Assembly: GCA_003663045.1 (NCBI GenBank)
Contig: QMZG01000009.1
Location: 1-16,212, forward strand
DNA from: Candidatus Altiarchaeales archaeon
Lineage (GTDB): Archaea > Altiarchaeota > Altiarchaeia > IMC4 > QMZM01
Direction: 5' to 3'
Length of the DNA: 16,212 bases
In this document: one piece after another, positions 282 through 16,212 of the stretch
Layout: each line of letters opens with the position of its first letter
Position numbering within the stretch: position 1 is the stretch's first letter
The notes under the pieces: generated by a model
The model's database searches: none
Told to the model about the DNA's origin: nothing
Seen by the model: the letters and a program-made list of their open reading frames with translations, nothing else
Program-made: the position numbers and the translations under genes

Positions 282-1160
282 ATGCCATATAAAATTCCCA
301 CTGACATAAGATATGAGGAAAGGTTATTTGGACCATTAACCGTGAAGCAATCCATATACGCCTTAGTAGCAGCTATTTTAATTCTCTATCTTATATTTTT
401 CTCCGGTTTAGAGTTTTATGTATACATCATACCTGTCTTTTTAGTAGCTATTCTGGCTATAGGCTTTATAATGTTCAATCTGGATATGTATCTCTTAAAT
501 TATCTCTACTATATTAAGGGGATGAAAGAGTCATCATGGATTTCACCCGCTGCAAGGAAGTTGATGGAGATTAGATCAATTAGAGCGGATGCGGTATTTT
601 TGAAGGACGGTCGCGTTCTTGGTGTGATAAAGGTAAAGCCCATTAACTTTGGGGTCCTGAGTAGAGAAGACCAAGATACGGTGATATATGGATTCTTAGA
701 ATTTATAAATTCATTGAGTTTTCCTATACAGATTGTGATGAAGTCTGTTAACCTTGATTTAAGTGATTATCTAGGAGCATTGAAGAGAAGGATTGTGCAA
801 AGAGATGATAAGATGGCTCTTGCCTATTATGAACATTTTTCAGAGTATATGTATGATTATATAAAGGCCAATAAAATTAATGACAGATTATTCTACATAA
901 TAGTTCCCGCCAAAAGGTTTGCAGATGAAAAGAAGACGATCATGAATCTGGAGGATAGATGTAAGGCGGTTATTGAAACCCTGGGTCTTTCGGGAATTAT
1001 TGCAGAAAGACTGGGTAATAGGCAACTTCTTAGCCTTTATTCATCCTATTTCACAGAGTCATTTAAATTAGATGAGGAATTTGTTTCGCCTATTACCATG
1101 TATAAAAGGATGTGGCATGAAGCACCTAAAAAGGTTTATTATGTAGAAGAGGAACTATAA
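282..1160 (+). CDS. VirB3-like membrane hairpin fused to the VirB4 N-terminal domain, i.e. the N-terminal part of a split T4SS VirB3-VirB4 ATPase. The ORF track starts it at TTG 159. ATG 282 is the more likely start.
   Basis: With ATG 282 the N-terminus reads MPYKIPTDIRYEERLFGPLTVKQSIYALVAAILILYLIFFSG...IPVFLVAILAIGFIMF. A short cytoplasmic segment, the 'LFxGLT' motif and two TM helices form the classic VirB3/TrbD/PrgI layout. The following stretch AVFLKDGRVLGVIKVKPINFGVLSREDQDTVIYGFLEFINSLSFPIQIVMKS matches the conserved start of the VirB4/TrbE N-terminal domain ('dGsl..v.r..g.d...s.ee.e.....l..ll..l'). ATG 282 has GGGAG 5 nt upstream and a TATA box at -27. The longer TTG start adds a hydrophobic 41 aa of uncertain reality. 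Confidence 0.7.
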   Translation: MPYKIPTDIRYEERLFGPLTVKQSIYALVAAILILYLIFFSGLEFYVYIIPVFLVAILAIGFIMFNLDMYLLNYLYYIKGMKESSWISPAARKLMEIRSIRADAVFLKDGRVLGVIKVKPINFGVLSREDQDTVIYGFLEFINSLSFPIQIVMKSVNLDLSDYLGALKRRIVQRDDKMALAYYEHFSEYMYDYIKANKINDRLFYIIVPAKRFADEKKTIMNLEDRCKAVIETLGLSGIIAERLGNRQLLSLYSSYFTESFKLDEEFVSPITMYKRMWHEAPKKVYYVEEEL

Positions 1161-3521: not shown

Positions 3522-4682
3522 ATGGCGTTGATACCATTGGGTGAGAAAGAGGCTGAAGGGGAGGTCTATGTCCCAGAGGAGAAAAAAACAGGGATAGATA
3601 TCATAGAAAAATTCATAGAAAAATGGAGGGATGGGATATTTACCATCCTCGTTATCGCTTTTATAACAGCAATTTTTATTCCAGATATATTCCTGGGGGA
3701 TATTGGGATTAATCTTAAGTTGATAATTTTTGTTATAATAATTTTTTTAATCATTAGGATATCAGTTGTAAGATTACTTGAGTATGAAAGAGCAGTTGTA
3801 TTCCGACTGGGTAAATTTCACAGGGTAGCTGGTCCGGGTTGGGAATTGATTTTTCCAATAGTGGAGAAGTTTGTGAGGACGGATCTGAGATTAAAGGTTT
3901 ATACCATAGAACCGCAGGAGATAGTCACAAAGGATAAGGTAAGATTCTTGGTCTCTCCGGAGATATTCATGTACGTTTCTAATCCAAAGGATGCGGTGAT
4001 AAATGTGGACAATTACGAGAAGGCAGTTCTTTCTTATGTAAATTCAGCCCTGACCCATGTGGGCGGTGATTCAACCTCCGATTACATAGTAGCGCATATG
4101 GATGATATAAGCGAGATGCTGGAGCACAGTGTTGAAAAAATATCCACATTACCGGGAAGGGAGTGGGGGGTAATTGTACCAAAAATTAAGTTGGGGTTCA
4201 TCAGATTTCCAGATGAGGTTCAGTCCGCTATGCATAAAAGGGTCGCAGCCGGGCAACTAAAGTTGGCGGCACATGAAAAGGCAGATGCTACTAAGATTGA
4301 AATAGACGCCATAAGAGAGGCTGGCTCAAAACTTACTGATCCAGCAATTACCTATCTGTACCTAGAAGCATTGGATAAGATAGCTAAAGGAAAAGCTACG
4401 AAGATGATATTGCCTCTAGAAATATCCAAGATTGCAGAGAGCATAACCAAGAGAACTGGTGCTTTACCAGAAACACCTGAGGTCAGTTTACCCAAAGATT
4501 TAATTCGGAAATATAAGGAGTCTGTGGATAGGTATGATAAAAAACTGAAGGAGATAGAGGATAAACTGGCTAAAAGGGAGATAAAAGAAAGGAAAGAAAA
4601 GTCAGAGAAAAAAGAAACTGGGGAAGAACTTAATGAATACAAGGAGAGGATTAGAGAGATAAAAAAGAGGATCGGTATATAA
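3522..4682 (+). CDS. SPFH / Band-7 (stomatin/prohibitin-like) membrane protein with an N-terminal TM anchor and a C-terminal K/E-rich coiled coil.
   Basis: N-terminal TM segments FTILVIAFITAIFIPDIF / LKLIIFVIIIFLIIRI are followed by the canonical stomatin signature VVRLLEYERAVVFRLGKFHRVAGPGWELIFPIVEKFVRTDLRLKVYTIEPQEIVTKDKV. The pattern 'V.EYERaVvfRlGk....PG...i.P..d.v..vdlr......p.q.v.TKD.v' is classic SPFH. The tail EIEDKLAKREIKERKEKSEKKETGEELNEYKERIREIKKRI is a coiled coil. Confidence 0.85.
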   Translation: MALIPLGEKEAEGEVYVPEEKKTGIDIIEKFIEKWRDGIFTILVIAFITAIFIPDIFLGDIGINLKLIIFVIIIFLIIRISVVRLLEYERAVVFRLGKFHRVAGPGWELIFPIVEKFVRTDLRLKVYTIEPQEIVTKDKVRFLVSPEIFMYVSNPKDAVINVDNYEKAVLSYVNSALTHVGGDSTSDYIVAHMDDISEMLEHSVEKISTLPGREWGVIVPKIKLGFIRFPDEVQSAMHKRVAAGQLKLAAHEKADATKIEIDAIREAGSKLTDPAITYLYLEALDKIAKGKATKMILPLEISKIAESITKRTGALPETPEVSLPKDLIRKYKESVDRYDKKLKEIEDKLAKREIKERKEKSEKKETGEELNEYKERIREIKKRIGI

Positions 4683-4853
4683 GGCAATGGCACTTTGACA
4701 TTAACTTTGTTAAAGGCGCGTTTGCGTCCCTTATGAGGACTAATGACACCTTGATTTACGCTTTGTTAGTAACACCGATGCTTAAATTCTCTTCATATTG
4801 AGGATATTAGTATTGATTAATTTGAATGAAATCTAAAGATTATAAAATCCAAA

Positions 4854-5126
4854 ATGGATGATAAAATCGATACACAGAATATCTACATCGATCCAGAGAA
4901 AAAATTTGTTACTATAAGAGTAAATCCAAGGATTTATAAGATTCATACTATTATGAACGCTGCGGATGAATTCATAGAGACGGCAGAATTGGTAATAGAC
5001 GGAGATCCAGAAAAGGAGATCATCGTCAAGATGATCCCAAAGAAGAAGGATCTGACCGAGGAAGAATTGCTAGAATATGCCTACAAATTTAACACTTATT
5101 TGATATCCCATAGTGCTACGAGATAG
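4854..5126 (+). CDS. Small hypothetical protein (90 aa), acidic, no TM. It sits in a 170-nt / 100-nt intergenic context, implying its own promoter.
   Basis: ORF MDDKIDTQNIYIDPEKKFVTIRVNPRIYKIHTIMNAADEFIETAELVIDGDPEKEIIVKMIPKKKDLTEEELLEYAYKFNTYLISHSATR. TATA-like TATAAAA at 4841-4847 and TTGATTAATTT at 4813-4823 lie upstream. No recognisable motif. Coding status rests on ORF length and codon usage similar to its neighbours. Confidence 0.5.
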   Translation: MDDKIDTQNIYIDPEKKFVTIRVNPRIYKIHTIMNAADEFIETAELVIDGDPEKEIIVKMIPKKKDLTEEELLEYAYKFNTYLISHSATR

Positions 5127-5194
5127 AACCTGGATTAATTCAACTGATTCTTATTAAAATTCTCAATCAGCAATAAAGCATTTAAATAGCTTCT

Positions 5195-5208
5195 CAAAAT
5201 ATATATCA
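5195..5208 (+). promoter_or_regulatory. TATA-like box AAATATATAT centred about 26 nt upstream of ATG 5227. Candidate leaderless promoter for the Mrr-PAP2 gene.
   Basis: Seen directly: 5197-5206 aaatatatat, ATG at 5227. The spacing is typical for archaeal leaderless transcripts. An additional TTTAAATA sits at 5181-5188. Confidence 0.35.
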
Positions 5209-5226
5209 AACATAACATGACATAAT

Positions 5227-6990
5227 ATGGACGACTTTGAAAGATTTTGGATGGAAAGGGAAAGAGAAGAACTGGAGATAGAACCGGAGAAACTTAGAAA
5301 GGTTCTATCGAAGATACTTAAAGAGTTTAATCTGGAGTTAAAATCAATTGAAGAAACCGAAGAGAAAGACCTGGTAGCTACATGCTTAGATAAATTGGGG
5401 AGGGAGGTAACATCCTTAATAAGAATTCGTGCCGATACCGAAGGGATCGAAAGGGATGATGTAGAGGACTTTTATGAGGATATGGTAGAGAAAAGGGCTG
5501 TAGCTGCTATCTTTATCACTACCTCTTATTTTTTTAAGGATGCCAAGGATTTTGTAGAAGGGCTTCCCATAAGGCTGGTTGATAGAACACAGTTATCAGA
5601 AATTATAGCTGAGATCGAGGCCATAAAGGTTGAGAAGGCATTTGTTTCTGGGATGAATGACTCACAGGTGGTGAAATATTTCCAAAAAAAGACAAAGGGG
5701 AGGGTATTAGGTAGATTTGGAATGCCTGAGAATATCGAAGAGATAGATCGCAGGTATCTACCCATGGGGTTTTTCAGTCTCAAGAAAATCGAAGAAAACG
5801 TTGAAAGGAGAAAATTTGCATACATAGATCTCAGCAGTGGCGATCTCTTCTATATAGATGAAGGACGTATAAAGAAGGATGATATCATAAAGAATATTCT
5901 TAATCTTCCTCCAGAATCCAGGGAACACCTCATGGATTTGATTGAGCATGGAGAACTGCCTCATGAACATATAGATGGGAAGTATTTGCTCATACTGAAA
6001 AAAAGAGGGTTATTAGGAGAGTATGAAGAGGGTAGAGGGGGTGGAATCCTCAGTACTATGGTAAATGGAATCATGAGTTTAGTGATGATAATAATCGATA
6101 CAGCAGGGGAATTTATTGGCATTCCAAGATCAGAACATGTTCCAAAGGGGGGTACTGCTCAACCAAAGAGAGTTAAAGCGAGAGTCAATATCCCCATCTT
6201 TGATCAAGCCTATAATCTGGAGAATTTTATGGAGGTTTCAAATGCCAGTGAGGAATTTGATCCGGATCCCATGAAGTATAAACCAGAGGAGGTAGAGGAT
6301 ATTCTGAGGAAAATCACCGGGTATGAGGTAAAATTCGAGAATATGGTTTATTTTCCCTATTACCTGTGCAAATATTCTGGTCCAAGGGGGGAGAGGTACA
6401 GAAGGTTATATTCAGTGAAATTTAAAGAATTTTTTCCGAGGCCGGGAACATATAATGTATTGTATCATATTATAGACAAGTTTCCAGAATTGCCTTATCT
6501 CATACTGGCTGCTCTTTATATCCATTTTAATATCAGTGAAACGGAAAAATTAATGCATGTATTCTCTTCTTCCTTTCTTTTCCTGATTATATGCGTTTTC
6601 ACAGGGACGTTGTTAAAGGCTATCTTCAAGACGGAAAGAGTAACACCCTACTACGGTGTATCAGTTTTTAGATACGGATTTCCATCCATGCACAGTTTAG
6701 CCTCCATCGGTGCTATAGGGTTTGTATATTTTATAGAACCCATGGGGCCTTTACTTTCACTAGTACTGGTACCAATAGGTCTGCTCTATGTCTATTCCAG
6801 AATCAAGATAGGCGCTCACAGCGTGACCGATGTTATTGGGGGGGCAATCATTGGCCTTATCATGGGGATAATCTCTGGTATGCATCTACTGAAGATTCAT
6901 CTTCCATATCCTTTGGAGTTGATATCCACCACACTTTTTGTTATCATGCTATTTATCTTTATTATAATTAGAATTAAGTATATACACTAA
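5227..6990 (+). CDS. Fusion protein with an N-terminal Mrr-type restriction-endonuclease-fold domain (Mrr_cat-like), a central linker/wHTH-like region, and a C-terminal polytopic PAP2-superfamily (type 2 phosphatidic-acid phosphatase / haloperoxidase fold) membrane domain.
   Basis: N-terminus: LSKILKEFNLELKSIEETEEKDLVATCLDKLGREVTSLIRIRADTEGIERDDVEDFYEDMVEKRAVAAIFITTSYFFKDAKDFVEGLPIRLVDRTQLSEII. This follows the Mrr_cat pattern (D..D core, 'QcKr'-like LIRIR, 'gi.vTTs.Ft.eA..fa....i.LidgeeL'). Note R replaces the usual catalytic K. The C-terminal TM bundle carries the three PAP2 motifs: KAIFKTERVTP (KX6R-like, aa 464-474), FPSMHS (PSGH-type, nt about 6682-6693), and YSRIKIGAHSVTD (SRX5HX3D, nt 6796-6831). 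Confidence 0.8.
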   Translation: MDDFERFWMEREREELEIEPEKLRKVLSKILKEFNLELKSIEETEEKDLVATCLDKLGREVTSLIRIRADTEGIERDDVEDFYEDMVEKRAVAAIFITTSYFFKDAKDFVEGLPIRLVDRTQLSEIIAEIEAIKVEKAFVSGMNDSQVVKYFQKKTKGRVLGRFGMPENIEEIDRRYLPMGFFSLKKIEENVERRKFAYIDLSSGDLFYIDEGRIKKDDIIKNILNLPPESREHLMDLIEHGELPHEHIDGKYLLILKKRGLLGEYEEGRGGGILSTMVNGIMSLVMIIIDTAGEFIGIPRSEHVPKGGTAQPKRVKARVNIPIFDQAYNLENFMEVSNASEEFDPDPMKYKPEEVEDILRKITGYEVKFENMVYFPYYLCKYSGPRGERYRRLYSVKFKEFFPRPGTYNVLYHIIDKFPELPYLILAALYIHFNISETEKLMHVFSSSFLFLIICVFTGTLLKAIFKTERVTPYYGVSVFRYGFPSMHSLASIGAIGFVYFIEPMGPLLSLVLVPIGLLYVYSRIKIGAHSVTDVIGGAIIGLIMGIISGMHLLKIHLPYPLELISTTLFVIMLFIFIIIRIKYIH

Positions 6991-8987
6991 TCATCATCTC
7001 TTCCAAATTCCTCTTCTTTCCTTTCTCTGGTATCTATACGGACATCAATAATGCTTCTCAAACCATCTTCTGTGTTAAACACAATAATTCCACTGTATAA
7101 TCTTCTTTCTATATCCTCTTTTGTAGTGATCACCATTTTTATTATCTTCTCTTCACCCCTCTCCAATCTGAATCTATTTTCCTTATAGTTTATAAATATT
7201 CCAGCTGTAAGTAGTTCTTCATCATATACTATAACCCTTGAGAATGAATGATCCTCATCGTTTCTTAAGGCGATTTCTACCAATCTGGTCTCACCGGGCT
7301 GAACATTCACAGTAAGGGATGGTGGTACCGGTTTTTGTGGCAGGGTTGCCGTGACTATCCCCTTTCTCCTCTTCCTGGGAACCTCGGATGGAGCACGAGA
7401 ACGTATCTCATCCATCATGTATGGCTTTGCCTTCTCTTCTGAGACAACCCTGAATCCGTATTCATCCCCGATATATTTTTCTATTGAGGTCTTTCTCTCC
7501 CTCGCTGCTTTGACAAGTAATTCATAAAGATTTTCATTTCTCTGAATCTTTTCTATGGGTATCTCGCCCTTGATATTCGCCATACCTCTTAATGCGTCCT
7601 TTAGGGTTGCCCTGATTGGCCTAATTGGAGCATGAGAGGGTATCTTCTCTTCTCTTGGCTTAACCCTCTTAGTGACTCCGGGTTTGATGTAAGGAACTCC
7701 CACTCTTACACCTTTTTTAGAAGTAATTTTGAATCCGTATTGTATATTAACAAATTCCTCTACTGACATCCTTTTCTCCCCTGCAACACGAATTAGTGAG
7801 TTATGAAGCCTCTCATTTTTTTGGATTTCCTCCAGGGATATTTCACCCCTGATGTTGGCCATCTTTTTTAATGTAGAACCAATCTCCTCTCTGGACAACT
7901 CTCCTTTCTCAACGACCCTCTCATAGCCCCTCACACCAACCGCTGCTCTTGGTTCTTCTTCGGGCTTTTCTTCCTCTTTTTTCTCAAGTTCTATCTCAGG
8001 TTTCTCGAAGAATACTATCATCGGCGCCAGAGACTCGATAAAGATTACTGAGATGACAGCAAATGCACCAAACCAATTCATTAACCCGAATATGATCAAT
8101 GGCGATATTATCAGTAGAAGGGCCCCAGAGATATTTACCAGATCAGAGATTTCCGGTATGAGGGTAGTAAGAATCTGACTACCTACAGCTATTATTACCA
8201 ATGCAAGGGCATATCCTACCGGAAGAAAGATCCAGAAGAGCAGTTGCTTTATGATTATCTTTCCTATGTTCTTTGTAAGATAGAACAAACTGAGGAATAT
8301 TGCAAATGGAAAAAATATGATTAAAAAGATTAAAAGGATGTATCTAGCAACTAAGATGGCAAATATACCTAAAGTTAAGATAAATGTGAATATCAAAAAG
8401 GGTATACTTATTGCTATATCAATCCAGATAAAATCTACCGTCCTATAATTTAGATAATCTATGGCATTCTTATATGTAATCCCTATATCTAAGGGCCCCT
8501 GGGATAGAATACCCCTAGTTAGAACCTGCGATACATCGAGTAGTAACTGCATTATATGTAGGGAAAGTGAAATGATAACCATACCCACCAACAGCCTTAA
8601 CATCATGGACTTTGCCCTTGATCTGCCTCTTGGTGATCCTGAAAAGAACATCAGATAGATCCCTGTCAGTACTATGGCTGCGATATAGAATGGCTCCAGG
8701 ACTTTGACGAAGTAACCCCCAATATCTATTATCATCGGGTCTCTTAACGGAATTTCTTCCAAGAGATATGCATGAAGGTTATCATAGATTTCATCCTTCA
8801 TAACATCTATCTTGCCCCAGATCATTCCCAAGAATGTCAACCTTCTTGATAGTTCTGAAAAGAATTTTAGTATGGCATCGGCAGTAGACTCAAGAAATTC
8901 ACCAAATTCTGGCGGAATTGCGTATGCTACAGATGATAAGAGTAATGATACCGCGAATATAAATATTATAAATGTTCTACATTTCAT
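6987..8987 (-). CDS. Polytopic membrane protein, paralog 5 of 5 (VirB6/TrbL/TcpH/CedA-like by architecture). It has a roughly 340-aa hydrophilic C-terminal extension containing an internally duplicated roughly 65-aa module. It is the last gene of the minus-strand operon.
   Basis: Signal peptide MKCRTFIIFIFAVSLLLSSVAYA. Family motifs VLEPFYIAAIVLTGIYLMFFSGSPRGRSRAKSMML and FFPFAIFLSLFYLTKNIGKIIIKQLLFWI, with at least 6 TM helices. After aa about 325 comes an acidic linker EKPEIELEKKEEEKPEEEPR. Two repeats follow: (aa 371-435) STLKKMANIRGEISLEEIQKNERLHNSLIRVAGEKRMSVEEFVNIQYGFKI and (aa 460-523) ATLKDALRGMANIKGEIPIEKIQRNENLYELLVKAARERKTSIEKYIGDEYGFRV. A predicted beta-rich domain and a DDD tail end the protein. 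The stop overlaps the convergent Mrr-PAP2 stop. Confidence 0.8.
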   Translation of the reverse strand: MKCRTFIIFIFAVSLLLSSVAYAIPPEFGEFLESTADAILKFFSELSRRLTFLGMIWGKIDVMKDEIYDNLHAYLLEEIPLRDPMIIDIGGYFVKVLEPFYIAAIVLTGIYLMFFSGSPRGRSRAKSMMLRLLVGMVIISLSLHIMQLLLDVSQVLTRGILSQGPLDIGITYKNAIDYLNYRTVDFIWIDIAISIPFLIFTFILTLGIFAILVARYILLIFLIIFFPFAIFLSLFYLTKNIGKIIIKQLLFWIFLPVGYALALVIIAVGSQILTTLIPEISDLVNISGALLLIISPLIIFGLMNWFGAFAVISVIFIESLAPMIVFFEKPEIELEKKEEEKPEEEPRAAVGVRGYERVVEKGELSREEIGSTLKKMANIRGEISLEEIQKNERLHNSLIRVAGEKRMSVEEFVNIQYGFKITSKKGVRVGVPYIKPGVTKRVKPREEKIPSHAPIRPIRATLKDALRGMANIKGEIPIEKIQRNENLYELLVKAARERKTSIEKYIGDEYGFRVVSEEKAKPYMMDEIRSRAPSEVPRKRRKGIVTATLPQKPVPPSLTVNVQPGETRLVEIALRNDEDHSFSRVIVYDEELLTAGIFINYKENRFRLERGEEKIIKMVITTKEDIERRLYSGIIVFNTEDGLRSIIDVRIDTRERKEEEFGRDDD

Positions 8988-10110
8988 TTTCTATTCTTTT
9001 CCCGCTCTCAAAGTATGCCGTTGTCATTGCTGCAGGCTTCAGGAAGATGGCCGATATCAGAGCAAGAGAACTTATCCAGCTCATTATTCCCATGGCTATT
9101 AATGGGGCAAGGATTAACATTAAAAATCCAGAGAATACCACAAAGGTGTTTAAATCCAGCAATACCCCTGTGGCAGGTTCCGGGATAGAGAATATGCTAT
9201 TATAGGCAATCCAGGTAACCAGGAGTATTATAGCATCGATAACTGGGACAAATATCCAGATAATTGTTTGATTAAGAAGGATTCTCCCAACCCTTTTGGT
9301 AGCAAAGAAGGAATAAAGCAGGATCGTAAATGGGAAGAATATTGTTAGGAGAATCACCATAAAATATCTGATCGCCAGCACCATGAGAACACCGGCCGGT
9401 AGGAGAATGAGTAGGGCTAAGAATGGAAGTCCAATAAAGATCTCAAAAAATGTCACTACCAAGAAGTATTTTATAAAGAATTCCTTAGCCAACATAAACA
9501 TCTCAACGTTTATGGGAGATTCCGGGCTGGGAATTGATAAAAGAACTGATGTAAGATAGTGGGAGGTCTCTAAGAGCATCTCTATTATGGGTAACGTTAA
9601 TGTGATAATCCCAAGCCCGAGAATCAGTTTTATGAGGGTGGATTTTGCCCGTGCCCTGCCCAGTGGCGATCCGGAAACGAAAAGGAGATATACTGAGGTT
9701 ATCAGTATGGCAAGCGCATAAAATGGTTGAAGTATACTGATAAAGAGATTTAGGATCCCCAAAACTGCAGGGGCCCTTAACAGTGCTGGTGTATCCTTTA
9801 TTGTATTTCCCTGAAAAAGATCCCTCTGGTATATGAAGGGGATGAGGTTTTCAGAATATATCTTCATTAGCGCATCAATTCTATCTGCGATATAAAAATA
9901 GAAATCTATCCGCCTCGTTATCTCCATGCCCATCTTTGGGTACTCTCTCGAGACCTCATCCATCAGATCCTTCAACTTTGATGCTAACGACGGTTCAAGT
10001 GCGGGGGAAGCATGCTGTGCCGTGACATGGATGATACTAACCGTAACCAGAAGCATGACAATTGCTAATCTTCCCATTATTTTTTCTTTACCTTTTCCAT
10101 TCATTTTCAA
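8977..10110 (-). CDS. Polytopic membrane protein, paralog 4 of 5 (VirB6/TrbL-like candidate). The track start is TTG 10110. ATG at 10104 (MNGKGKEK...) or 10077 (MGRLAIV...) is the more likely start.
   Basis: Signal peptide or TM GRLAIVMLLVTVSIIHVTAQHA. Family motifs ILQPFYALAILITSVYLLFVSGSPLGRARAKSTLIKL and FFPFTILLYSFFATKRVGRILLNQTIIWI, with multiple TM helices. It abuts the upstream paralog with no gap. GGGGG lies 8-12 nt upstream of ATG 10104. Confidence 0.8.
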   Translation of the reverse strand: MKMNGKGKEKIMGRLAIVMLLVTVSIIHVTAQHASPALEPSLASKLKDLMDEVSREYPKMGMEITRRIDFYFYIADRIDALMKIYSENLIPFIYQRDLFQGNTIKDTPALLRAPAVLGILNLFISILQPFYALAILITSVYLLFVSGSPLGRARAKSTLIKLILGLGIITLTLPIIEMLLETSHYLTSVLLSIPSPESPINVEMFMLAKEFFIKYFLVVTFFEIFIGLPFLALLILLPAGVLMVLAIRYFMVILLTIFFPFTILLYSFFATKRVGRILLNQTIIWIFVPVIDAIILLVTWIAYNSIFSIPEPATGVLLDLNTFVVFSGFLMLILAPLIAMGIMSWISSLALISAIFLKPAAMTTAYFESGKRIENEM

Positions 10111-11064
10111 TTAAGGCAAAAACCCCCTGAATAATCTTACAAATATGAAGGGGGTAAGCATTAACATCAACAAACCGGCCAATTCCATGATGAATTTTAA
10201 TCCAGTAGGAACGATAAAGCTCGTTATTAAATCTGTGAGATTCATTCCTATCGCTATTATAACGAGCACGAATGCCATCGCAGCCTGAGCTAATGTCCAG
10301 AGAAGTGTTTGTTCCAGTAGCAATCTTCCCATTCCCCGGGAGGGTAAAAAGGAATAGAGAAGGATTGTAAATGGCAATATCATGGAGAGGATAGCTACCA
10401 TGTAGAACCTCAATTTTAGGATAAGGAATATCCCCTCCAAAAGAGCATAAGGGATAAAGAGGAGGGGAATTCCGGCCCTCTCCACGCCCAGTGACCAGCC
10501 ACTGGCACTGTGCGACATTATATGCCTGCCCATGTTGAGTATATATTCCGTTGCATGTATAAAAGGATCATTCTTGTTTACCGGAGCCAATGATAGAATA
10601 TTTAGGGTAATTGCCTCCGAGATACCAAAGAATATCATCAGAATATAGGGCGAAACGGATATGATTGCAATGCCGATAATCAACAGTAATAGGGAGGATT
10701 TTGCACTGGCTCTCTTTTCTGGTGAGCCAGAAAAGAATATCAGGTAGATTCCAATGAGGATTATTACTGTAACATATATTGCCTGTAAAATGGAGATGAA
10801 GTAATCCATAATCTTCTTGGTATTTGATTCCAGTATTGAGGGATTCTCCAGTATCAGATCATCTATATTCCTAAGTGTTTCTATCTTTTCCATTATCAAC
10901 CTTTCGTAATTTTCAGATACCTTTTCTCTAAGGAATGCCTCCGCTGCCTCTTCGGTCAGTGGATAGATGATCCCCGATACCGAATTTGACAAAAACAGCA
11001 ATATTACAATAACTATCAATAATGAAATTCCTCTGATTTTTGGGTTGATTGAATCTTTTTTCAT
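10111..11064 (-). CDS. Polytopic membrane protein, paralog 3 of 5 (VirB6/TrbL-like candidate).
   Basis: Signal or TM LLIVIVILLFLSNSVSG. Motifs ILQAIYVTVIILIGIYLIFFSGSPEKRASAKSSLLLL and ILPFTILLYSFLPSRGMGRLLLEQTLLWT. C-terminal ...FVRLFRGFLP. The start ATG (11062-11064) overlaps the TGA of the upstream paralog (ATGA-type coupling). GGAGA lies 8 nt upstream. Confidence 0.82.
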   Translation of the reverse strand: MKKDSINPKIRGISLLIVIVILLFLSNSVSGIIYPLTEEAAEAFLREKVSENYERLIMEKIETLRNIDDLILENPSILESNTKKIMDYFISILQAIYVTVIILIGIYLIFFSGSPEKRASAKSSLLLLIIGIAIISVSPYILMIFFGISEAITLNILSLAPVNKNDPFIHATEYILNMGRHIMSHSASGWSLGVERAGIPLLFIPYALLEGIFLILKLRFYMVAILSMILPFTILLYSFLPSRGMGRLLLEQTLLWTLAQAAMAFVLVIIAIGMNLTDLITSFIVPTGLKFIMELAGLLMLMLTPFIFVRLFRGFLP

Positions 11065-11990
11065 GGTAAAAATCTCCTAACCATTGTTATTAGCATTATG
11101 GGTGATATGATTACCACCAGAAATGTTGATATACCTATTATAGTTCTTAGATCCCCGCTAAAGCCTAAAATAGTGATTCCCATATTTGCAGTCACTATAA
11201 GCAAGGCAATTATTACCTGGAGGAATGTCCACAATATGGTCTGTTCCACTATAAACCTGCCAATGTCCCTCGTTATGTTAAATGTATACAGGAAGATGCC
11301 TATGGGGAATATCAATGTGAAGATCAAAAGAAGGAGATATCTCAGAGTAAGAACAGAAAAGATACCTATTATCATGAAGAATATGAATAAAAGGAAGAGG
11401 TGACCCCCTTCGAATGTGGTTAATGTGGATGCAGTAAAGATTCTCACAAGATCATTTATTGTGTCCAGGAATATCCTCCCTATCCCCACTGGACTCTTAT
11501 CCAGTATATCCTTAGACAATTCATAGGAAACATTTGAAATCAGTTGCAGTATGGGGAAGGTGAGGGAAACAATTACCATACTGGCAATCAACTTGGGAAA
11601 GAGTAATTTCGCTTTTCTTCTACCCTTTGGCGATCCGGAAAGAAACATTAGGTAGATTCCAGTAATTAATATTGCCATAACATATAATGGTTCTAAGACG
11701 GTGATGAAGTATTCTATTATATGATTTATCAGATGATCATCAAGTGGGGGATTCATCAGGATTAAATCACGCAGACTATCAAAGATTTCCAATAATCCAT
11801 GACCTACCGGTTTTCCAATAAACGTCCCATGGAGCAGGTAATAGATAAGCAGGATGAATATCCCCCTGAATTTTAATTCGATTGCTTCATGCTTCACGGC
11901 CATTTCCCCAAACCATTCTGAGGTTATTGAGGGGATTAATATGATGCAGATGCATACCCCCATTATCAATTTTTTATTTATTTTTCTCAT
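11061..11990 (-). CDS. Polytopic membrane protein, paralog 2 of 5 (VirB6/TrbL-like candidate).
   Basis: Signal or TM LIMGVCICIILIPSITSE. Motifs VLEPLYVMAILITGIYLMFLSGSPKGRRKAKLLFPKL and FPIGIFLYTFNITRDIGRFIVEQTILWT. C-terminal ...MVRRFLP. 4-nt overlaps at both ends (11061-11064, 11987-11990). Confidence 0.82.
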   Translation of the reverse strand: MRKINKKLIMGVCICIILIPSITSEWFGEMAVKHEAIELKFRGIFILLIYYLLHGTFIGKPVGHGLLEIFDSLRDLILMNPPLDDHLINHIIEYFITVLEPLYVMAILITGIYLMFLSGSPKGRRKAKLLFPKLIASMVIVSLTFPILQLISNVSYELSKDILDKSPVGIGRIFLDTINDLVRIFTASTLTTFEGGHLFLLFIFFMIIGIFSVLTLRYLLLLIFTLIFPIGIFLYTFNITRDIGRFIVEQTILWTFLQVIIALLIVTANMGITILGFSGDLRTIIGISTFLVVIISPIMLITMVRRFLP

Positions 11991-12919
11991 GGTAAGAAAT
12001 CCCTCAAAAAGCTTACGGTAGCTATAGGGACCACTATCAGGGCTATAATTCCTCCCAATTCCAACAAAATCAATACCTCACGCGTCAACAAGGAGGAAAA
12101 CACCACGATTATGGTAGCTATTGAGGTTAATGCTATTGCCTCCGTTACCTGTACAGAAATCCAGAGCAGTGTTTGTTCCATCATCCTTCTGCCTATCCCT
12201 CTGGTAGGCATGAAGAGATAGAGGAATATCGTCAATGGGAATACTATGGTAAATAGAGCAACGACGATATACCTTGAAAATATAACAAACAGGAGTGCAG
12301 AAATAATTATCAGAGAAAGAAACAGAAATGGTACCGATGCCTCTGAAGAATACCATGTGATATTATGAAATTTTGACATAAGATAATCTATTGGATTTAT
12401 GTCTTTATCTAAGGGTAGTAGAATGCCTACAGGATCACCCGGTCCCTGAGATATTATACCATCCGATAGGGTTTCAGAAAAACTGAAAATCACACTCATT
12501 ATATACGGTGAGATAGCAATTAATACCATTGCTATAATAATTCCCGGTAATAAAGATTTTATCTTTGCCCTGATTCCGGGCGAACCAGAAAAAAATATCA
12601 TATATATCCCACTGAAGATTATGGCAAAGACAAACAATGGCTCCATGATGGTCACAATATATCTGGTAATACCCAAGACATCTGGATTCATTGGGTTCGG
12701 ATTCAGTAGCAATATCTCCACAAAATGATCCCTGCATATATCCATGGCATATACTACAAGATCCTCACCAATCTTGTTAAGATTCATTCTCAGAAGAAAA
12801 TCTAATAGTACCTTAACTGCTGCCGCTTCCCCAATGAAAGCTGACGATGATGATGCGAGGAATAAAACTACTATAACCGGGAATGTTAATTTAAACAAGA
12901 TCTTCCTTATTGACTTCAT
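11987..12919 (-). CDS. Polytopic membrane protein, paralog 1 of 5 (VirB6/TrbL-like candidate).
   Basis: Signal peptide LTFPVIVVLFLASSSSAFIGEAAA. Motifs IMEPLFVFAIIFSGIYMIFFSGSPGIRAKIKSLLPGI (nt about 12553-12594) and VFPLTIFLYLFMPTRGIGRRMMEQTLLWI. C-terminal ...SFLRDFLP. Start ATG is at 12917-12919, 12 nt after the upstream gene. Confidence 0.82.
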   Translation of the reverse strand: MKSIRKILFKLTFPVIVVLFLASSSSAFIGEAAAVKVLLDFLLRMNLNKIGEDLVVYAMDICRDHFVEILLLNPNPMNPDVLGITRYIVTIMEPLFVFAIIFSGIYMIFFSGSPGIRAKIKSLLPGIIIAMVLIAISPYIMSVIFSFSETLSDGIISQGPGDPVGILLPLDKDINPIDYLMSKFHNITWYSSEASVPFLFLSLIIISALLFVIFSRYIVVALFTIVFPLTIFLYLFMPTRGIGRRMMEQTLLWISVQVTEAIALTSIATIIVVFSSLLTREVLILLELGGIIALIVVPIATVSFLRDFLP

Positions 12920-12931
12920 TTTTCTAAAGGG

Positions 12932-14038
12932 TTATTTTCTGATGAATTTGAAATATCCCGCTACCAAGATTATCACAGAGATTAAGAGTATCAGGTAATT
13001 GAGCCATTCCACTTTCATGCAATCTGGATCTTCTCCACTCTTACAGTCTGGATCACATTTTCCATCCTCTACCTTATCACAGTAACCATCCTCTCCTCCA
13101 GAAGCACAGTCTTGAGGACAATTGAGATAATTTTCAATACCCATCTCACAGATGTTGTCGTTATTGCAGATACAATCTATATCCCCCTCCCTATGACAGT
13201 CGGGGTCACATATCCCATCTCTTATTCCATCACAATAATTGTCCCTGGAGCCAGAACAGTCCTCTGGACAATTCCAGTAGTTTTCACCATGGTCACAGAC
13301 ACCATTTTTATTGCAGGTTTCTATTACGATAACCTCTATCGTATCTTTTACGGAGATATTCTCAAAATCGATAACCTCAAGGGTAATCTTATGAATTCCA
13401 GCAGAGAGATTATCAATCCTCGTTATATCTTTATCTAATTCCTTCCCATCCAATTTCCAGATAAGGGTATATGGCTTTTTACCACCATAGACAGAGGGAA
13501 TCAGGTTGATGAAATCCCCCCTTAGGTATGTAGTATTCTTTGGCGATAGGATAGATACTGTTAAAGGAATTTTCTTTATTACTACCAGAGAGATATCCTC
13601 CCTTACCTCCAAACCGGTACTATCCCGGACCTTGAGGGTAATCTCATGCGTGTTCACAGACAGGTTCTTTATAGTGAATTCTCTATCTCTTCCTATAACC
13701 CCGTCTATATTCGATACCCATTCAAATCTGTAGGGTGGTGTGCCACCAAATACAAACGCCTCAAAGTTTATAGGACCTTCTTCATAGATGTGTGGATAAC
13801 CAAATGGAGATATAATAGATGCCGTGAGTTTTTGGGTTATACCCTCGTCCCCTACTAATTCATCCAATGGATCTGGAGTAATTTTAATATTTTCATGACT
13901 TGTATTATCTGGATCTAATTCGGGATATGCGGGATGAGAGTGGTAGGAATGGCATCTCTCACAGACTCCCCCAGCGTAATAAATTAATGCAAGCAGCATT
14001 ACTACTATTTCTATTCCGGTTGTCATAATCCTCCTCAT
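12932..14038 (-). CDS. Secreted/surface protein. It has an N-terminal signal-anchor, two PKD/Ig-like domains ('GGxPPYxFxW' type), a duplicated Cys/Asp-rich module pair (candidate Ca-binding, TSP3/EGF-like), and a C-terminal TM anchor.
   Basis: N-terminus TGIEIVVMLLALIYYAGG. PKD-like signatures FVFGGTPPYRFEWVSNIDG and YGGKKPYTLIWKLDGKEL. Sequons include NLS, NTT and NIS. The Cys-rich array at aa 242-340 (nt 13019-13315) is built as [CNKNGVCDHGENYWNCPEDCSG + DNYCDGIRDGICDPDCHREGDIDC] then [CNNDNICEMGIENYLNCPQDCASG + DGYCDKVEDGKCDPDCKSGEDPDC]. C-terminal TM WLNYLILLISVIILVAGYF followed by KFIRK. Confidence 0.8.
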   Translation of the reverse strand: MRRIMTTGIEIVVMLLALIYYAGGVCERCHSYHSHPAYPELDPDNTSHENIKITPDPLDELVGDEGITQKLTASIISPFGYPHIYEEGPINFEAFVFGGTPPYRFEWVSNIDGVIGRDREFTIKNLSVNTHEITLKVRDSTGLEVREDISLVVIKKIPLTVSILSPKNTTYLRGDFINLIPSVYGGKKPYTLIWKLDGKELDKDITRIDNLSAGIHKITLEVIDFENISVKDTIEVIVIETCNKNGVCDHGENYWNCPEDCSGSRDNYCDGIRDGICDPDCHREGDIDCICNNDNICEMGIENYLNCPQDCASGGEDGYCDKVEDGKCDPDCKSGEDPDCMKVEWLNYLILLISVIILVAGYFKFIRK

Positions 14039-16212
14039 TTTCTACCCATGAATTCATCCCACATTTCATAGATATCTAATCTACCTTCCCTGAACCATCT
14101 ATATGAAAAGGCTAAGAGGATCAGTATCATGAAGAGTAGGAGAACCTCCGGGGAAAGGAACCACCAGAATCTGCTTAGAGAGTAGACATTTACGTAAGTG
14201 GTATCTTCACTTGGCGTATACCTGCTATGATACAAACATCTAACCCTTGTGCTCTGGTCTGTGGTTGTGAATTTAAACTCGGCTTTTCCATCCATATCTG
14301 TTGTCACCTTTGCAGAGATGCCATACGCTTCCAATTCTATGGTTACCTCTTCATATGGAATTCCCTTACCGGTAAGAACATCCAAGAGCGTAACATGGAT
14401 GATAACCTCATCTCCAGGATTTACAGATTCTGGTATTGCTTCACATATCACTCTGGATGCATTCCTCATCGTAACATTTATATAGATGTTGGCATAGGGT
14501 CTTGTTTCGGTACGTGGCGGAAACAATGGAAAGGTCTGAGTAGAAAGATTATCCCTGAAGTGGATAAATATGGTGATATTTGCATTTTCAAGGTCAAAAT
14601 ATGGAGTGCCACAGCAGCATTGTTGTGAATCCCAATCAGCACTACAAGATAGATTACAATCCTCTATACATGACTCATTATCTGCTTTAATACAGTGCAC
14701 ACATCTTTTGAGTGACGTGTTTAGAGGACAATTACATTCAGAAATAGAAATCTGGTTTCTTGCTTTACAAAACTCCTGGCAGTTATCTCCGAGAGAGGAG
14801 TTATACCAGCTTAGGTTCCTGTACTTGATCAAAGGATAGGGAAAATTCATGGCTTCAAAATCAAGGATATATCTGCCACTCACCTCTTCAACAACCTCAT
14901 GCTTGAGGGTTTTATTATGGCAGATCTTCCATATGTTATGACCCGACATATCGCTGTAGGTGTATGGCCCATCTCCGACCTCAGCGGTGCATAGACGAGA
15001 ACCGGTAGTGCTATTCAATTTTGTCGCATCGTCTGAATCGCGATTTACAGCCCACACATTTCCATCGAAGTCTACGGTCACACCTATGGGACCTGTTCCA
15101 ACACCATATCTGCCCAGAACCTCACAGTTAGAACCATTTACCTTAATTACCTCATCGGATGTATAGTCTGCAACCCACGCGTTATTATCCCAATCCACAA
15201 CTATGCCCCTGGTATAACCGGCAATCCTATTTTTACATATAACGGCCCCGGTTGTTCCGTTCACCTTGTATACATTACCTGATCTCGCACCACCCAACCA
15301 GATGTCTCCATTGCTGTCTATACCTATGCCGTACGCATCGCCACCTATGCGATAACCTCCAGGGGGCGATACAACAACGCCATCTGATGTTCTTATCTTG
15401 AAGAGCCTGTCATCCTTATCATAACCATTACATATTATCCATACATAACCATGACAGTCATAGACTCCACCGTAGGGATATAATCCAACTGGAATTGGAG
15501 ATGAGTCTATGGGACATGTTGGATTTCTTGCTGGATCACCTATAATACATTCACCCGTAGTTCCATTCAATTTCCATACATTATTATCCAGAGCATTGCC
15601 CACCCAGATATTGTTGTCATCATCTGCCGCTATTGGCCTGGGACCGCGTCCAACGGGATAGGTATCTATAACCTTGCATGTATTGCCATCCAATCTGGTT
15701 ACATCGTTTGAGTTTCTGTTAGCTACCCACACCTCACCCTTGAGGTCTACCGCTGTTCTTGATGGATTTGATCCAACATCATATGTACATACCTCCTTAC
15801 AATCATGTGTTCTTACCTTGCTTACCGTGTTGTCTTTAGAATTGGCAATGAAGATGTAGGTTGTATTAAATGTTTTCTTACTTATATCGTGAGTGACCTC
15901 CCCCCTAAGGTCTCCAGTAAAAACCGGATTCGTTCCAAGTTGATCCATGAGTTTTATATTAGAAACCTCCTCTGTCTCGAGATCAACAAAGTCAAAGTAG
16001 TAGCCTTCTTCCTCGTGGAATGTCCTATCGGAGGTACATGGAAATTTGTAGCTGTGTCCCTTTGGAGGAAGACAAACGCAGTCCGTTCTCTTGTATTTAT
16101 TGCCATTTTCATCTATACAGGTGACATCTGTTATATCATCCTCAGGACATGTACAATCTGCGGGACATATCTTCTTACACTGCTCTGGATAGTTAAAGTA
16201 AGAACTTTCATA
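14035..16212 (-). CDS. Large surface protein (partial, with its 5' end beyond the window edge). It has an N-terminal Cys-rich region, a YVTN/NHL-type beta-propeller repeat domain, a second Cys-rich region, and a C-terminal TM anchor. It is heavily sequon-decorated and so probably N-glycosylated.
   Basis: The frame is open from the track's Met (15948) up to nt 16212 (...CKKICPADCTCPEDDITDVTCIDENGNKYKRTDCVCLPPKGHSYKFPCTSDRTFHEEEGYYFDFVDLETEEVSNIKL-MDQLG...). The true start is therefore upstream of the window. Repeats such as YDVGSNPSRTAVDLKGEVWVANRNSNDVTRLDGNTCKVIDTYPVGRGPRPIAADDDNNIWVGNALDNNVWKLNGTTGECI match the roughly 40-residue YVTN/NHL beta-propeller blade pattern ('G.P.giavd..gn.WVan...n.V.k.d'). 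It contains more than 15 N-x-S/T sequons. C-terminal TM FWWFLSPEVLLLFMILILLAFSYRWF. Its stop overlaps the start of the downstream gene (14035-14038). Confidence 0.8.
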   Translation of the reverse strand, partial: YESSYFNYPEQCKKICPADCTCPEDDITDVTCIDENGNKYKRTDCVCLPPKGHSYKFPCTSDRTFHEEEGYYFDFVDLETEEVSNIKLMDQLGTNPVFTGDLRGEVTHDISKKTFNTTYIFIANSKDNTVSKVRTHDCKEVCTYDVGSNPSRTAVDLKGEVWVANRNSNDVTRLDGNTCKVIDTYPVGRGPRPIAADDDNNIWVGNALDNNVWKLNGTTGECIIGDPARNPTCPIDSSPIPVGLYPYGGVYDCHGYVWIICNGYDKDDRLFKIRTSDGVVVSPPGGYRIGGDAYGIGIDSNGDIWLGGARSGNVYKVNGTTGAVICKNRIAGYTRGIVVDWDNNAWVADYTSDEVIKVNGSNCEVLGRYGVGTGPIGVTVDFDGNVWAVNRDSDDATKLNSTTGSRLCTAEVGDGPYTYSDMSGHNIWKICHNKTLKHEVVEEVSGRYILDFEAMNFPYPLIKYRNLSWYNSSLGDNCQEFCKARNQISISECNCPLNTSLKRCVHCIKADNESCIEDCNLSCSADWDSQQCCCGTPYFDLENANITIFIHFRDNLSTQTFPLFPPRTETRPYANIYINVTMRNASRVICEAIPESVNPGDEVIIHVTLLDVLTGKGIPYEEVTIELEAYGISAKVTTDMDGKAEFKFTTTDQSTRVRCLYHSRYTPSEDTTYVNVYSLSRFWWFLSPEVLLLFMILILLAFSYRWFREGRLDIYEMWDEFMGRK

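Follow-up and report, generated by a model that had tools for sequence, protein, structure and literature searches.

We analysed a window of 16,212 nucleotides from a contig (QMZG01000009.1) of an uncultivated Candidatus Altiarchaeales archaeon. On its plus strand, a VirB3-like (PrgI) TM hairpin fused to a VirB4 N-terminal domain (159..1160; 333 aa from a TTG start, 292 aa in public gene calls) precedes a VirB4-family ATPase (1166..3481; 771 aa, the last ~180 of which form an extension without a Pfam or PDB match). An SPFH/Band-7 gene (3522-4682), a 90-aa ORF (4854-5126) and an Mrr_cat nuclease-like + PAP2 phosphatase fusion (5227-6990), all on the plus strand, lie between VirB4 and a convergent minus-strand array, with the stop of the fusion gene overlapping that of the last array gene. 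The array comprises two genes for Cys-rich surface proteins, g1 (14035..16212) and g2 (12932..14038), followed by those for five VirB6-like paralogs: p1 (11987..12919; 310 aa), p2 (11061..11990; 309 aa), p3 (10111..11064; 317 aa), p4 (8977..10110; 375-377 aa, with a further hydrophobic segment towards its C-terminus) and the extended p5 (6987..8987; 666 aa).

All seven minus-strand ORFs of the initial annotation are present, including the first, listed there from its stop at 14035 to 15948, and the junctions of -4, +12, -4, -4, 0 and -11 nt are right for the ORF ends. The tight head-to-tail packing stands, although with the starts assigned in public contigs the overlap at g2 and the abutment at p4 turn into small gaps. 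For g2 this start is the second ATG, 8 nt downstream of a GGAGG, and the protein then has 364 aa of a possible 368; for p4 it is an ATG giving 375 aa. Judged from the spacing, a single transcript and translational coupling of the seven genes are plausible. The window does not hold the complete operon, as g1 is cut by the window edge: only the 3' 725 codons of a gene encoding 1866 aa (1430-7030 on the parent contig, L001) are present, and the frame stays open to the edge with no in-frame upstream stop.

The giant g1 protein contains, in order, a signal peptide, an Ig domain, a VWA domain, a beta-propeller, an Ig-like region and, towards the C-terminus, a TM anchor (593-620 in the numbering of the window ORF). 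The VWA domain scored 30.4 bits against a Pfam cut-off of 23.8, with further Pfam matches to Vgb_lyase/NHL/YNCE propeller and Big_7/Big_1 models. The Ig/PKD-like g2 protein has a signal or anchor at its N-terminus and a TM anchor at its C-terminus; its orthologs show faint PKD, Ig_3 or SprB matches, and a PHROG search returned a Hoc-like Ig domain (1e-6). Both proteins deserve the description Cys-rich, with 4.6% (window part of g1) and 4.9% Cys compared with 0-2 Cys per paralog. The location of g2 directly upstream of the five paralogs is kept in 8 loci.

Pairwise BLASTP confirmed that the last five products are true paralogs, with scores of 84-130 bits (E 1e-17 to 1e-35, scaled to a 1e8-residue database) and mutual identities of 26-33%. 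These scores greatly exceed chance, the best of 40 composition-preserving shuffles giving 26 bits. Each paralog has a signal/anchor and an extracytoplasmic helix, then a VirB2-pilin-like TM hairpin whose cytoplasmic loop is basic; ~45 extracytoplasmic residues follow, and after them three more membrane helices. Both conserved blocks are found in the paralogs as originally noted. In p3 (the member that was structurally modelled) the hairpin spans residues 84-142 (10639..10815, minus strand) and contains the SGSPxxRxxAKS loop, and the second block spans residues 229-256 (10297..10380, minus strand; ILPFTILLYSFLPSRGMGRLLLEQTLLW), its basic loop being predicted on the cytoplasmic side. The three R(x)FLP termini likewise check out, as RDFLP (p1), RRFLP (p2) and RGFLP (p3). 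In p5, the VirB6-like domain occupies residues 1 to ~330; beyond it lie one more TM and an acidic linker, and then two small alpha/beta repeats (366-422 and 456-515) and an Ig-like beta-sandwich (545-652). This C-terminal domain is conserved among p5 orthologs (1e-16 to 1e-68); the membrane part of p5 was poorly modelled.

The predicted fold of p3 resembles that of VirB6. An AF2 model of p3 obtained without templates (pLDDT 84.9, pTM 0.73) was searched against the PDB using Foldseek, and TrwI/VirB6 chains occupied ranks 1-5 and 8 with a probability of 0.97-1.00 and TM scores of 0.44-0.53 on target, compared with TM <0.3 for every other match. The suggested structural comparison supported the proposal, with TrwI the sole top match by two structure-comparison methods. 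The match is near full-length (~270 columns) at a structural-alignment identity of ~14-18%. Mean net loop charges across 67 members (-1.5, +3.0, -1.5, +1.8, -1.0 and +0.7) fit an N-out, five-TM, C-in arrangement, the topology that Jakubowski et al. reportedly described in 2004 for A. tumefaciens VirB6.

In sequence searches the links to VirB6 are weak. Placement in the Pfam VirB6/TrbL families failed, as no window paralog reaches the TrbL, TrbL_3 or TraG_N threshold; a precomputed 'TrbL_3 (weak)' flag on p5 was not reproduced, and a profile search of PDB sequences gave no match. The initial annotation had left the shared motifs unplaced. The first is the hairpin loop of VirB2/T4SS_pilin (PF18895): the p3 hairpin scores 28.4 bits against a Pfam cut-off of 26.6, and 18 of 22 family members match, with p2 below threshold. 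The second was found to align, weakly, with the invariant VirB6 block GP.FI..L.W.PT..FF..W (hhalign against a 10-sequence R388-type VirB6 alignment; probability 15%, P 0.0018). A profile of Altiarchaeota pilins also matches the paralog hairpins, including that of p3, and the poly-pilin protein P0161 matches the family profile at positions 76-148 only. Two NCBIfam models were matched over the hairpin only and far below their cut-offs of 150 and 40: the conjugation TM protein pLS20_p028 (NF045890; p1, 22.7 bits, 3.9e-5, covering N-terminal positions 35-129 of 377) and the pilin-like ICE protein Mbov_0395 (NF045849; 17.8 bits, 0.002).

The VirB3-like protein matches PF12666 PrgI (32.7 bits, cut-off 27) and the N-terminal part of NCBIfam VirB4_plasma (1.3e-13), and carries a precomputed PF26593 TraC-like annotation. 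VirB4 matches the CD1110-family VirB4 of NCBIfam (3.3e-91) and P-loop_TraG, AAA_10 and DUF87 in Pfam, whereas with the CedB and CedD models, whose cut-offs are 600-700 bits, it reaches no more than 57-62. Contigs 99% identical to the window place a PMT_2 gene and a stand-alone VirB2-like pilin just upstream of the window's start, so that the gene order reads PMT_2, VirB2-like pilin, VirB3-like, VirB4 and then the convergent array. The order of the SPFH/Band-7, 90-aa ORF and Mrr_cat-PAP2 genes is the same in L035-L037, and L022 has a counterpart of the central part of the Mrr-PAP2 protein beside VirB3/VirB4; these three genes may or may not belong to the system.

The five paralogs are ancient and fixed in order, each with its own orthologs. 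In 8 loci p1 to p5 group by position, with same-position identities between loci of ~30-82% (usually at least 36%) and ~23-37% outside the orthogroup. Two further locus types also have five paralogs, and position-specific orthogroups were found in at least 12 loci altogether. We consider it likely that p1-p5 belong, as highly divergent VirB6-type subunits, to a chromosomal T4SS-like machine conserved across Altiarchaeota, operating along the lines set out further below. Taken locus by locus, co-occurrence with VirB4 is only partial: several independent loci have both side by side, but most modules lie >10 kb from VirB4. Genomes carry two or more modules, mostly away from VirB4; there is none within 10 kb in L005, L008-L013 and L017-L019, several of these contigs being short. 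In the MAG that provided the window, the genes flanking a second module are PfkB and a Cdc48-like AAA gene, and adhesin-like genes are the array's constant partners. These distances could indicate that the module, though VirB6-derived, is a self-sufficient apparatus that inserts, anchors or displays giant surface proteins, with no need of VirB4 or pilins and only incidental VirB4 adjacency. We regard this as unlikely, though it is the most serious competitor. Four independent locus types have the family beside VirB2/VirB3/VirB4: the window with L035-L037; L015, where a pilin, five paralogs, a pilin-domain protein, VirB3 and VirB4 follow each other on one strand; and L023 and L024, where the paralog domain (E 8e-25 to 1.5e-34) occurs in genes upstream of VirB3/VirB4, one of which matches PF04610 TrbL/VirB6 (E 0.009). 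Moreover, the module encodes no alternative energy source, and VirB4, apparently widespread in the phylum, could act in trans. Fold, topology, VirB2-like N-terminus and linkage together support the original proposal of a new archaeal VirB6-like T4SS membrane family associated with VirB3/VirB4.

As T4SS_pilin is the only Pfam model matched above threshold, and Altiarchaeota encode many pilin-hairpin fusions (pilin+PKD, pilin+PKD+papain protease, and proteins with a C-terminal pilin hairpin), the five proteins might instead be specialised pilins, VirB2 derivatives with extra helices that sit in or cap a pilus as minor pilins do, with no platform. This appears improbable: the paralogs have 300-666 aa and at least five hydrophobic helices, compared with 98-139 aa and a single hairpin in true neighbouring pilins, and their full-length fold matches VirB6. 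A pilin-like start is itself known from VirB6 and CedA proteins, whose N-termini share homology with VirB2 and CedA1 (Beltran et al. 2023, PMC9905601).

Less probable still, the locus could provide mating-pair formation for an MPF-FATA integrated conjugative element or plasmid that moves its own DNA. The best VirB4 models (the CD1110 family and Mycoplasma ICE VirB4) are conjugative ATPases, relatives of VirB4 on plasmids are mostly on conjugative ones, and an Mrr_cat nuclease-like domain is nearby. However, VirB4 is 63-90% identical across Altiarchaeota (>100 clusters, scaffolds up to 1.56 Mb), a conservation well above that of the paralogs, and it sits among housekeeping genes (PheRS, ThrRS, eRF1, prefoldin and SRP54-type); the window and the ~40 kb of related contigs examined showed no relaxase, coupling protein or integrase; and the VirB6-like family has no relatives in IMG/VR or PLSDB. 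These findings point to a domesticated, chromosomal system that looks vertically inherited, not plasmid-borne. That the proteins form an unrelated polytopic family, for instance of transporters, with convergent or compositional likeness to VirB6 and VirB2, is scarcely credible given the near full-length structural match, the recurrent pilin-model hairpin and linkage to VirB2/3/4, and the lack of any Pfam or NCBIfam transporter match.

Among known systems, VirB6/TrwI of R388 (MPF-T) forms a pentameric stalk base that carries a VirB5 pentamer and recruits VirB2 pilin, and extended VirB6 proteins are known (PMC12857230). Given this structure, 'channel' in the initial annotation is better read as a pentameric platform or stalk base. 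R388 has a single VirB6 gene, in contrast to five distinct paralogs below Pfam thresholds on an archaeal chromosome, with no VirB5, 7, 8, 9, 10 or 11 or coupling protein detected in the system. The Ced/Ted DNA importers (VirB6-like CedA/TedA, VirB2-like pilin CedA1/TedC, VirB4 CedB/TedB; PMC9905601) are likewise minimal, domesticated chromosomal archaeal derivatives with VirB2, VirB6 and VirB4 homologs, no relaxase and a VirB6-like protein that begins pilin-like. The Altiarchaeota system differs in its MPF-FATA/CD1110-type VirB4, separate VirB3/PrgI-like gene, five VirB6 paralogs and giant adhesin genes, and in having more than one module in a genome; DNA import, the Ced/Ted function, is no more than a possibility here. 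Patescibacteria (CPR) share a chromosomal, near-universal MPF-FATA-related VirB4, PrgI-type VirB3, VirB6, VirB2-like pilins and the lack of a relaxase, co-opted there for a non-conjugation function (PMC12102498). These bacteria amplify the pilins (PF18895/PF04956 arrays of 2-11 genes) and have no detected adhesins (PMC12102498), whereas Altiarchaeota amplify the VirB6-like gene to a fixed five and add giant adhesin-like genes. Tandem VirB6 paralogs are also kept together in Rickettsiales Rvh (RvhB6) and Ehrlichia (four paralogs), and Bartonella Trw, which functions in adhesion and has no coupling protein, co-amplified trwJ/I/H modules (VirB5/VirB6; PMC2883598); extended VirB6 proteins with large hydrophilic domains, as in p5, occur in this set (PMC12857230). 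All three are MPF-T systems of proteobacteria in which the VirB set is complete, their paralogs arose independently of those in Altiarchaeota, and orthology of the Bartonella copies is blurred by recombination, unlike the clean orthologs at each of the five positions here.

Returning to the VirB6-type reading, the five different subunits would build one hetero-oligomeric platform; as VirB6 of bacteria is pentameric, a heteropentamer would be the simplest form. This platform would be energised by the VirB3/VirB4 ATPase and would recruit pilin subunits, and the presumably co-transcribed, C-terminally anchored, Cys-rich g1 (VWA/propeller/Ig) and g2 may replace a VirB5-like tip or adhesin. Several modules, each of an adhesin and five VirB6 proteins, would share a single VirB4 motor within a genome and could provide alternative surface specificities. 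The output would most likely be adhesion through a pilus or cell-contact organelle; DNA exchange of the Ced/Ted kind is possible, and plasmid conjugation is not expected, as the loci examined showed neither relaxase nor coupling protein nor integrase. In the literature searched, no description was found of five ancient VirB6-like paralogs arranged, in fixed order, behind two large adhesin-like proteins and beside a chromosomal pilin/VirB3/VirB4 core conserved across the phylum.

An ORF check of the minus strand gave seven head-to-tail ORFs, whose coordinates agree exactly with the initial annotation: g1 (14035..16212, -) and g2 (12932..14038, -), which encode Cys-rich surface proteins, followed by five tandem VirB6-like paralogs, p1 to p5 (6987-12919, -). 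In reverse complement, the window corresponds to the terminal 16.2 kb of a 41-kb ENA contig from a Candidatus Altiarchaeales MAG (locus tags DRO76_...); its sequence was also found on near-identical contigs of other samples. The proposed seven-gene operon stands as to gene order but is not complete in the window: the first ORF (14035-15948) has no upstream stop before the window edge and corresponds to the C-terminal 725 residues of a 1866-aa protein, and the operon promoter falls beyond the window. In public gene calls, g2 and p4 both begin at an ATG further downstream; with these starts, two of the six junctions, previously described as an overlap and an abutment, become short gaps, while the other four stand. 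A scan for sigma-70 promoters and terminators returned chance-level results, the model being irrelevant for an archaeon, and no tRNA or Rfam features were found. Purine-rich, Shine-Dalgarno-like strings (GAGGG, AGGAG, AGGGGG) lie inside the (R/K)xFLP codons that end p1, p2 and p3 (11990-12010, 11064-11085 and 10110-10135, all on the minus strand), 14-18 nt 5' of the next start codon. Because the peptide motif is kept in orthologs with Lys for Arg, the constraint on it acts at least partly on the protein.

The last five products are genuine paralogs, as had been claimed, sharing 26-33% identity in a multiple alignment and scoring 84-130 bits pairwise, against at most 26 bits for composition-preserving shuffles. 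AlphaFold2 yielded a confident model of p3 (pLDDT 84.9, pTM 0.73; 22-sequence alignment, no templates). When this model was compared with the whole PDB using Foldseek, TrwI/VirB6 chains occupied ranks 1-5 and 8, with probabilities of 0.97-1.00 and target TM-scores of 0.44-0.53 over 270-290 columns at 14-18% identity, and no non-VirB6 match exceeded a TM of 0.3. The suggested kinship with the solved R388 VirB6 (TrwI) was thereby borne out at the level of fold. The topology of A. tumefaciens VirB6, which is N-out with five TM helices and C-in, serves as reference. The predicted topology of the paralogs is likewise N-out, five TM and C-in, with a ~45-aa extracytoplasmic loop after TM2, and so is of VirB6 type as a prediction from hydropathy, AF2 helices and alternating loop charges. 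Mean net loop charges across 67 family members are -1.5, +3.0, -1.5, +1.8, -1.0 and +0.7, an alternation that requires the hydrophobic stretch 197-240 to be a single pass, as in the AF2 model.

The first conserved block of the family, ...GIYL.FFSGSP.GR..AKS..., forms the loop of a two-helix TM hairpin matching PF18895 (T4SS_pilin, VirB2-like). The match lies above the gathering threshold in p3 (28.4 bits vs 26.6) and below it in p2 and p4, and PF18895 is matched by 18 of 22 family members at E <1. A profile built from genuine pilins adjoining Altiarchaeota VirB4, which are 98-139 aa long, matched only paralog hairpins in the window (p3, p5 and p4), and these pilins share the loop motif, in the form S..DP..R..AK. 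NCBIfam gave weak matches over the hairpin to two conjugation families, pLS20_p028 and Mbov_0395 pilin-like. The N-terminal region of the paralogs is thus homologous to VirB2 pilin. Given that the N-termini of VirB6 and CedA are homologous to the VirB2 and CedA1 pilins (Beltran et al. 2023, PMC9905601), a hairpin followed by further membrane helices corresponds to the VirB6 architecture. The paralogs do not fit the pattern of VirB2/T4SS pilins themselves (PF18895, PF04956), which are ~70-140 aa with a signal peptide and one TM hairpin; they are 309-666 aa with at least five hydrophobic helices.

Membership of the Pfam VirB6/TrbL family did not hold for any window paralog by HMM at the gathering threshold: PF04610 (VirB6/TrbL), PF19590 (TrbL_3) and PF07916 (TraG_N) gave zero matches in the window paralogs at E up to 10, and a precomputed 'TrbL_3 (weak)' flag on p5 was not reproduced in repeat profile searches. 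The best TrbL score in the wider family, 16.3 bits vs 25.9 (E 0.009), belongs to a 770-aa protein of the related locus L024, whose gene adjoins VirB4; among p5 orthologs, TrbL was matched by two of ten at E 0.88 or worse, and TraG_N at E 3.2. Alignment of the family with ten R388-type plasmid VirB6 proteins by hhalign gave a weak score, which does not serve as proof (probability 14.8%, P 0.0018), with 154 colinear columns in which the invariant blocks are superposed, the family FP.TI.LY.F.PTR...EQT.LW falling on the VirB6 GP.FI...W.PT..FF..W. The same comparison with the single TrwI sequence was not significant, the family alignment, used as a profile against PDB sequences, returned nothing relevant, and PHROGs gave no match for the paralogs. 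No Pfam or NCBIfam model currently covers the family. Because these sequence-level links are weak, we describe the paralogs as VirB6-like rather than as Pfam family members, an assignment supported by fold, topology, N-terminal homology and genomic context. The VirB6 interpretation of the initial annotation is supported in this form, while its 'channel' subunits are better read as a pentameric platform than as a channel.

The genomic context is provided by the plus strand of the window, which encodes a PrgI/VirB3-like hairpin fused to a VirB4 N-terminal domain (159..1160), a VirB4 ATPase of the monoderm CD1110/MPF-FATA type (1166..3481; 3e-91), and then an SPFH protein, a 90-aa ORF and an Mrr_cat + PAP2 fusion (3522..6990). 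Position 1 of the window is a contig end. On longer, 99%-identical contigs a stand-alone, 138-aa VirB2-like pilin is encoded ~350 bp upstream of the VirB3-like gene, preceded by a PMT_2 glycosyltransferase, and the order PMT_2, pilin, VirB3, VirB4 was found again in L015 and L022. The window locus and its flank therefore contain a minimal set of VirB2, VirB3, VirB4 and VirB6. The expected co-occurrence of the family with VirB4 was seen in the window with its matching loci L035-37 and in L015, L023 and L024, but not within 10 kb in L005, L008-L013 and L017-L019. Immediately 5' of VirB3/VirB4, L023 and L024 have genes for extended proteins of 682, 770 and 1665 aa that contain the same VirB6-like domain.

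The window VirB4 carries a C-terminal extension of ~180 aa (residues 590-771; 2933-3481, +). Plasmid VirB4s that are ~30% identical are without it, their matches ending near residue 600; Altiarchaeota VirB4 homologs are of similar length to the window protein, mostly ~750-806 aa. Pfam and PDB sequence searches with the extension gave no match; by reading only, its motif PDITFETPDGRLIAIEV may resemble a PD-(D/E)xK nuclease core. Directly 3' of VirB4, the SPFH/Band-7 protein (3522-4682, +) has a long Lys/Glu-rich C-terminal coiled-coil; its position is kept in L035-L037 and is taken by pilin genes in L022-L024. The fusion protein (5227-6990, +) consists of an Mrr_cat restriction-endonuclease-like domain (17-126), an uncharacterised middle and a PAP2 membrane phosphatase (478-549), and its gene is convergent with p5, the stops overlapping by 4 nt. 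The middle region (~164-400) is found again in two places: in a 255-aa protein adjoining VirB3/VirB4 in L022, and N-terminally in a Cdc48-like AAA protein encoded next to the second module in L005. Past window position 1, in the region L036:1-4271, a gene whose product is 6758 aa long (4398 aa in a second contig) terminates ~4 kb before the pilin gene; an NTP_transf_2 gene and then the PMT_2 glycosyltransferase come after it. PMT_2 immediately precedes the pilin in three locus types, a hint of pilin or adhesin glycosylation.

The g1 protein comprises, in order, a signal peptide, an Ig domain, a VWA domain (above threshold), an NHL/YncE-type β-propeller, an Ig-like domain and a C-terminal TM, and contains 92 Cys; g2 is Cys-rich and Ig/PKD-like, again with a C-terminal TM. 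Both look like anchored adhesins, which would fill a VirB5-like tip or adhesin role. Archaeosortase/PGF-CTERM sorting of g1 and g2 was ruled out, as their C-termini are without the PGF motif. A link to the Altiarchaeum hami grappling hooks was dropped for want of supporting evidence, the hamus paper giving no gene context and its protein being a soluble 97-kDa Sec substrate. The last paralog, p5, is an 'extended VirB6': its core is followed by one additional hydrophobic stretch and an acidic linker, and then by two small alpha/beta repeats and a sandwich of Ig-like type (pLDDT 75-87). The full-length p5 model was poor in the membrane domain, and the C-terminal sandwich matches generic Ig, PapD or MSP folds only. 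Judging by the extra TM and the acidic tail, the extension would be extracellular, a feature that is not universal among orthologs.

Just past window position 16212 and divergent from g1, the parent contig (L001:1-1359, -) encodes a ~592-aa protein that starts with a VirB2-like pilin hairpin, above the PF18895 threshold at 33.1 bits, and continues with a PKD domain and a cysteine protease of the papain family; it looks like a pilin-anchored protease. L022 encodes related proteins of 442, 372, 211 and 381 aa, which either join pilin and PKD or carry a pilin hairpin at the C-terminus. Outside the window, the 1775-aa protein P0161 is made up of ~14-17 tandem T4SS_pilin/TrbC (VirB2) repeats (PF18895, 302 bits over 14 stretches) and looks like a 'poly-pilin' polyprotein. 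In some family members (P0025-P0027 and L020:5037-11084), a single polypeptide combines the VirB6-like domain with a VWA domain (~500 aa) or with a very large extension (2015 aa). Platform parts can thus be joined covalently to adhesin-like ones, in keeping with g1 and the paralogs being functionally linked.

An exhaustive HMM search identified 603 family representatives at 50% clustering. Of ten distant representatives sampled, five had a source name, which was Altiarchaeota in every case. A GTDB scan likewise returned Altiarchaeota only, a result biased to close relatives because its peptide patterns were drawn from both invariant blocks. Homologs of VirB4 with 63-90% identity form >100 clusters (90% clustering) on scaffolds of up to 1.56 Mb, and those with a name are nearly all from Altiarchaeota. 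On three large scaffolds VirB4 neighbours PheRS, ThrRS, eRF1, prefoldin, ribose-5-phosphate isomerase and SRP54-type genes, with two to four small pilin genes flanking VirB3/VirB4. The ATPase type would be compatible with a conjugative T4SS (MPF-FATA) element; this was rejected on account of the conserved chromosomal context and the lack of any relaxase, coupling protein or integrase in the window or any related locus examined. Searches of IMG/VR and PLSDB gave no relatives of the VirB6-like family. VirB4 conservation, housekeeping neighbours, missing transfer genes and the IMG/VR and PLSDB results together give what appears to be the pattern of a domesticated, vertically inherited chromosomal machine conserved across the phylum.

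The family profile, together with the proteins of the window, served to annotate 24 loci. A module consisting of a g1-like giant gene, a g2-like Ig gene and exactly five paralogs, the last being the longest, is present in L001, L005 and L008-L013, and five paralogs are found in two further locus types (L014/L015/L017 and L018/L019). Orthology is strictly position-specific, with p1-p5 each clustering with the same-position gene of other loci; identity is about 30-82%, usually at least 36%, at the same position and about 23-37% outside the orthogroup. At least two modules occur per MAG in DRO76 (L001, L005), JAWAEV01 (L013, L017), IMC4 (L018, L019) and MAG126 (L007, L011), and only some adjoin VirB4 (the window with L035-37, and L015). 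As judged from these comparisons, the five-fold set is old, non-redundant and kept as a unit, which is the signature of a hetero-oligomer.

Solved VirB6 is pentameric, carrying a VirB5 pentamer and recruiting VirB2 (PMC12857230; primary structure, PMC9259494). The conserved number five is no more than suggestive of a pentamer at the stalk or pilus base, and in the simplest model one copy of each of p1-p5 would form a VirB6 heteropentamer. Each genome would then combine a single VirB2/3/4 core with several platform-and-adhesin cassettes. The complete reading, an asymmetric T4SS stalk built on a heteropentamer of five VirB6 paralogs, with interchangeable giant-adhesin cassettes on a shared VirB2/VirB3/VirB4 core and serving as a cell-contact or pilus organelle, is offered tentatively, as a possible and on balance doubtful one. 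The SM1 clade of Altiarchaeota has a double membrane.

Bartonella Trw, in which trwH is the VirB7 homolog, provides the nearest precedent for one core with several platform-and-adhesin cassettes. In that system, the trwJ-trwI-trwH modules, whose trwJ and trwI are homologs of VirB5 and VirB6, have been amplified along with the trwL pilins; it lacks a coupling protein and acts in adhesion (PMC2883598). The closest domesticated parallels are the archaeal Ced/Ted systems (PMC9905601) and the essential T4SS of Patescibacteria (PMC12102498), the latter paralleling the MPF-FATA type of the Altiarchaeota system. Compared by gene content, the Altiarchaeota locus equals the Ced/Ted gene set plus a separate VirB3-like gene; the window VirB4 is not a CedB equivalog, since it scores 57 bits on the CedB model vs a cut-off of 700. 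Nothing relevant on Altiarchaeota with VirB4 or type IV secretion was found in the literature searched.

VirB6 is among the least understood core T4SS subunits. Its role as a pentameric platform for VirB5 docking and pilin addition was revealed by the R388 structure alone. If the five positions are indeed occupied by five separately conserved proteins, Altiarchaeota would offer a natural experiment on VirB6, in which each subunit-specific contact with pilin, tip protein or ATPase could be traced to one of the paralogs, and which would bear on whether the multi-VirB6 systems of Rickettsiales work alike. Domesticated chromosomal derivatives of the T4SS occur in two other archaeal lineages, Sulfolobales (Ced) and Thermoproteales (Ted); Altiarchaeota, some of which have a double membrane and elaborate surface appendages, would be the third. 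Equipped with giant VWA/propeller adhesins, a conserved machine of this kind for adhesion or pilus formation would bear on the attachment and cell interaction of these uncultivated subsurface primary producers.
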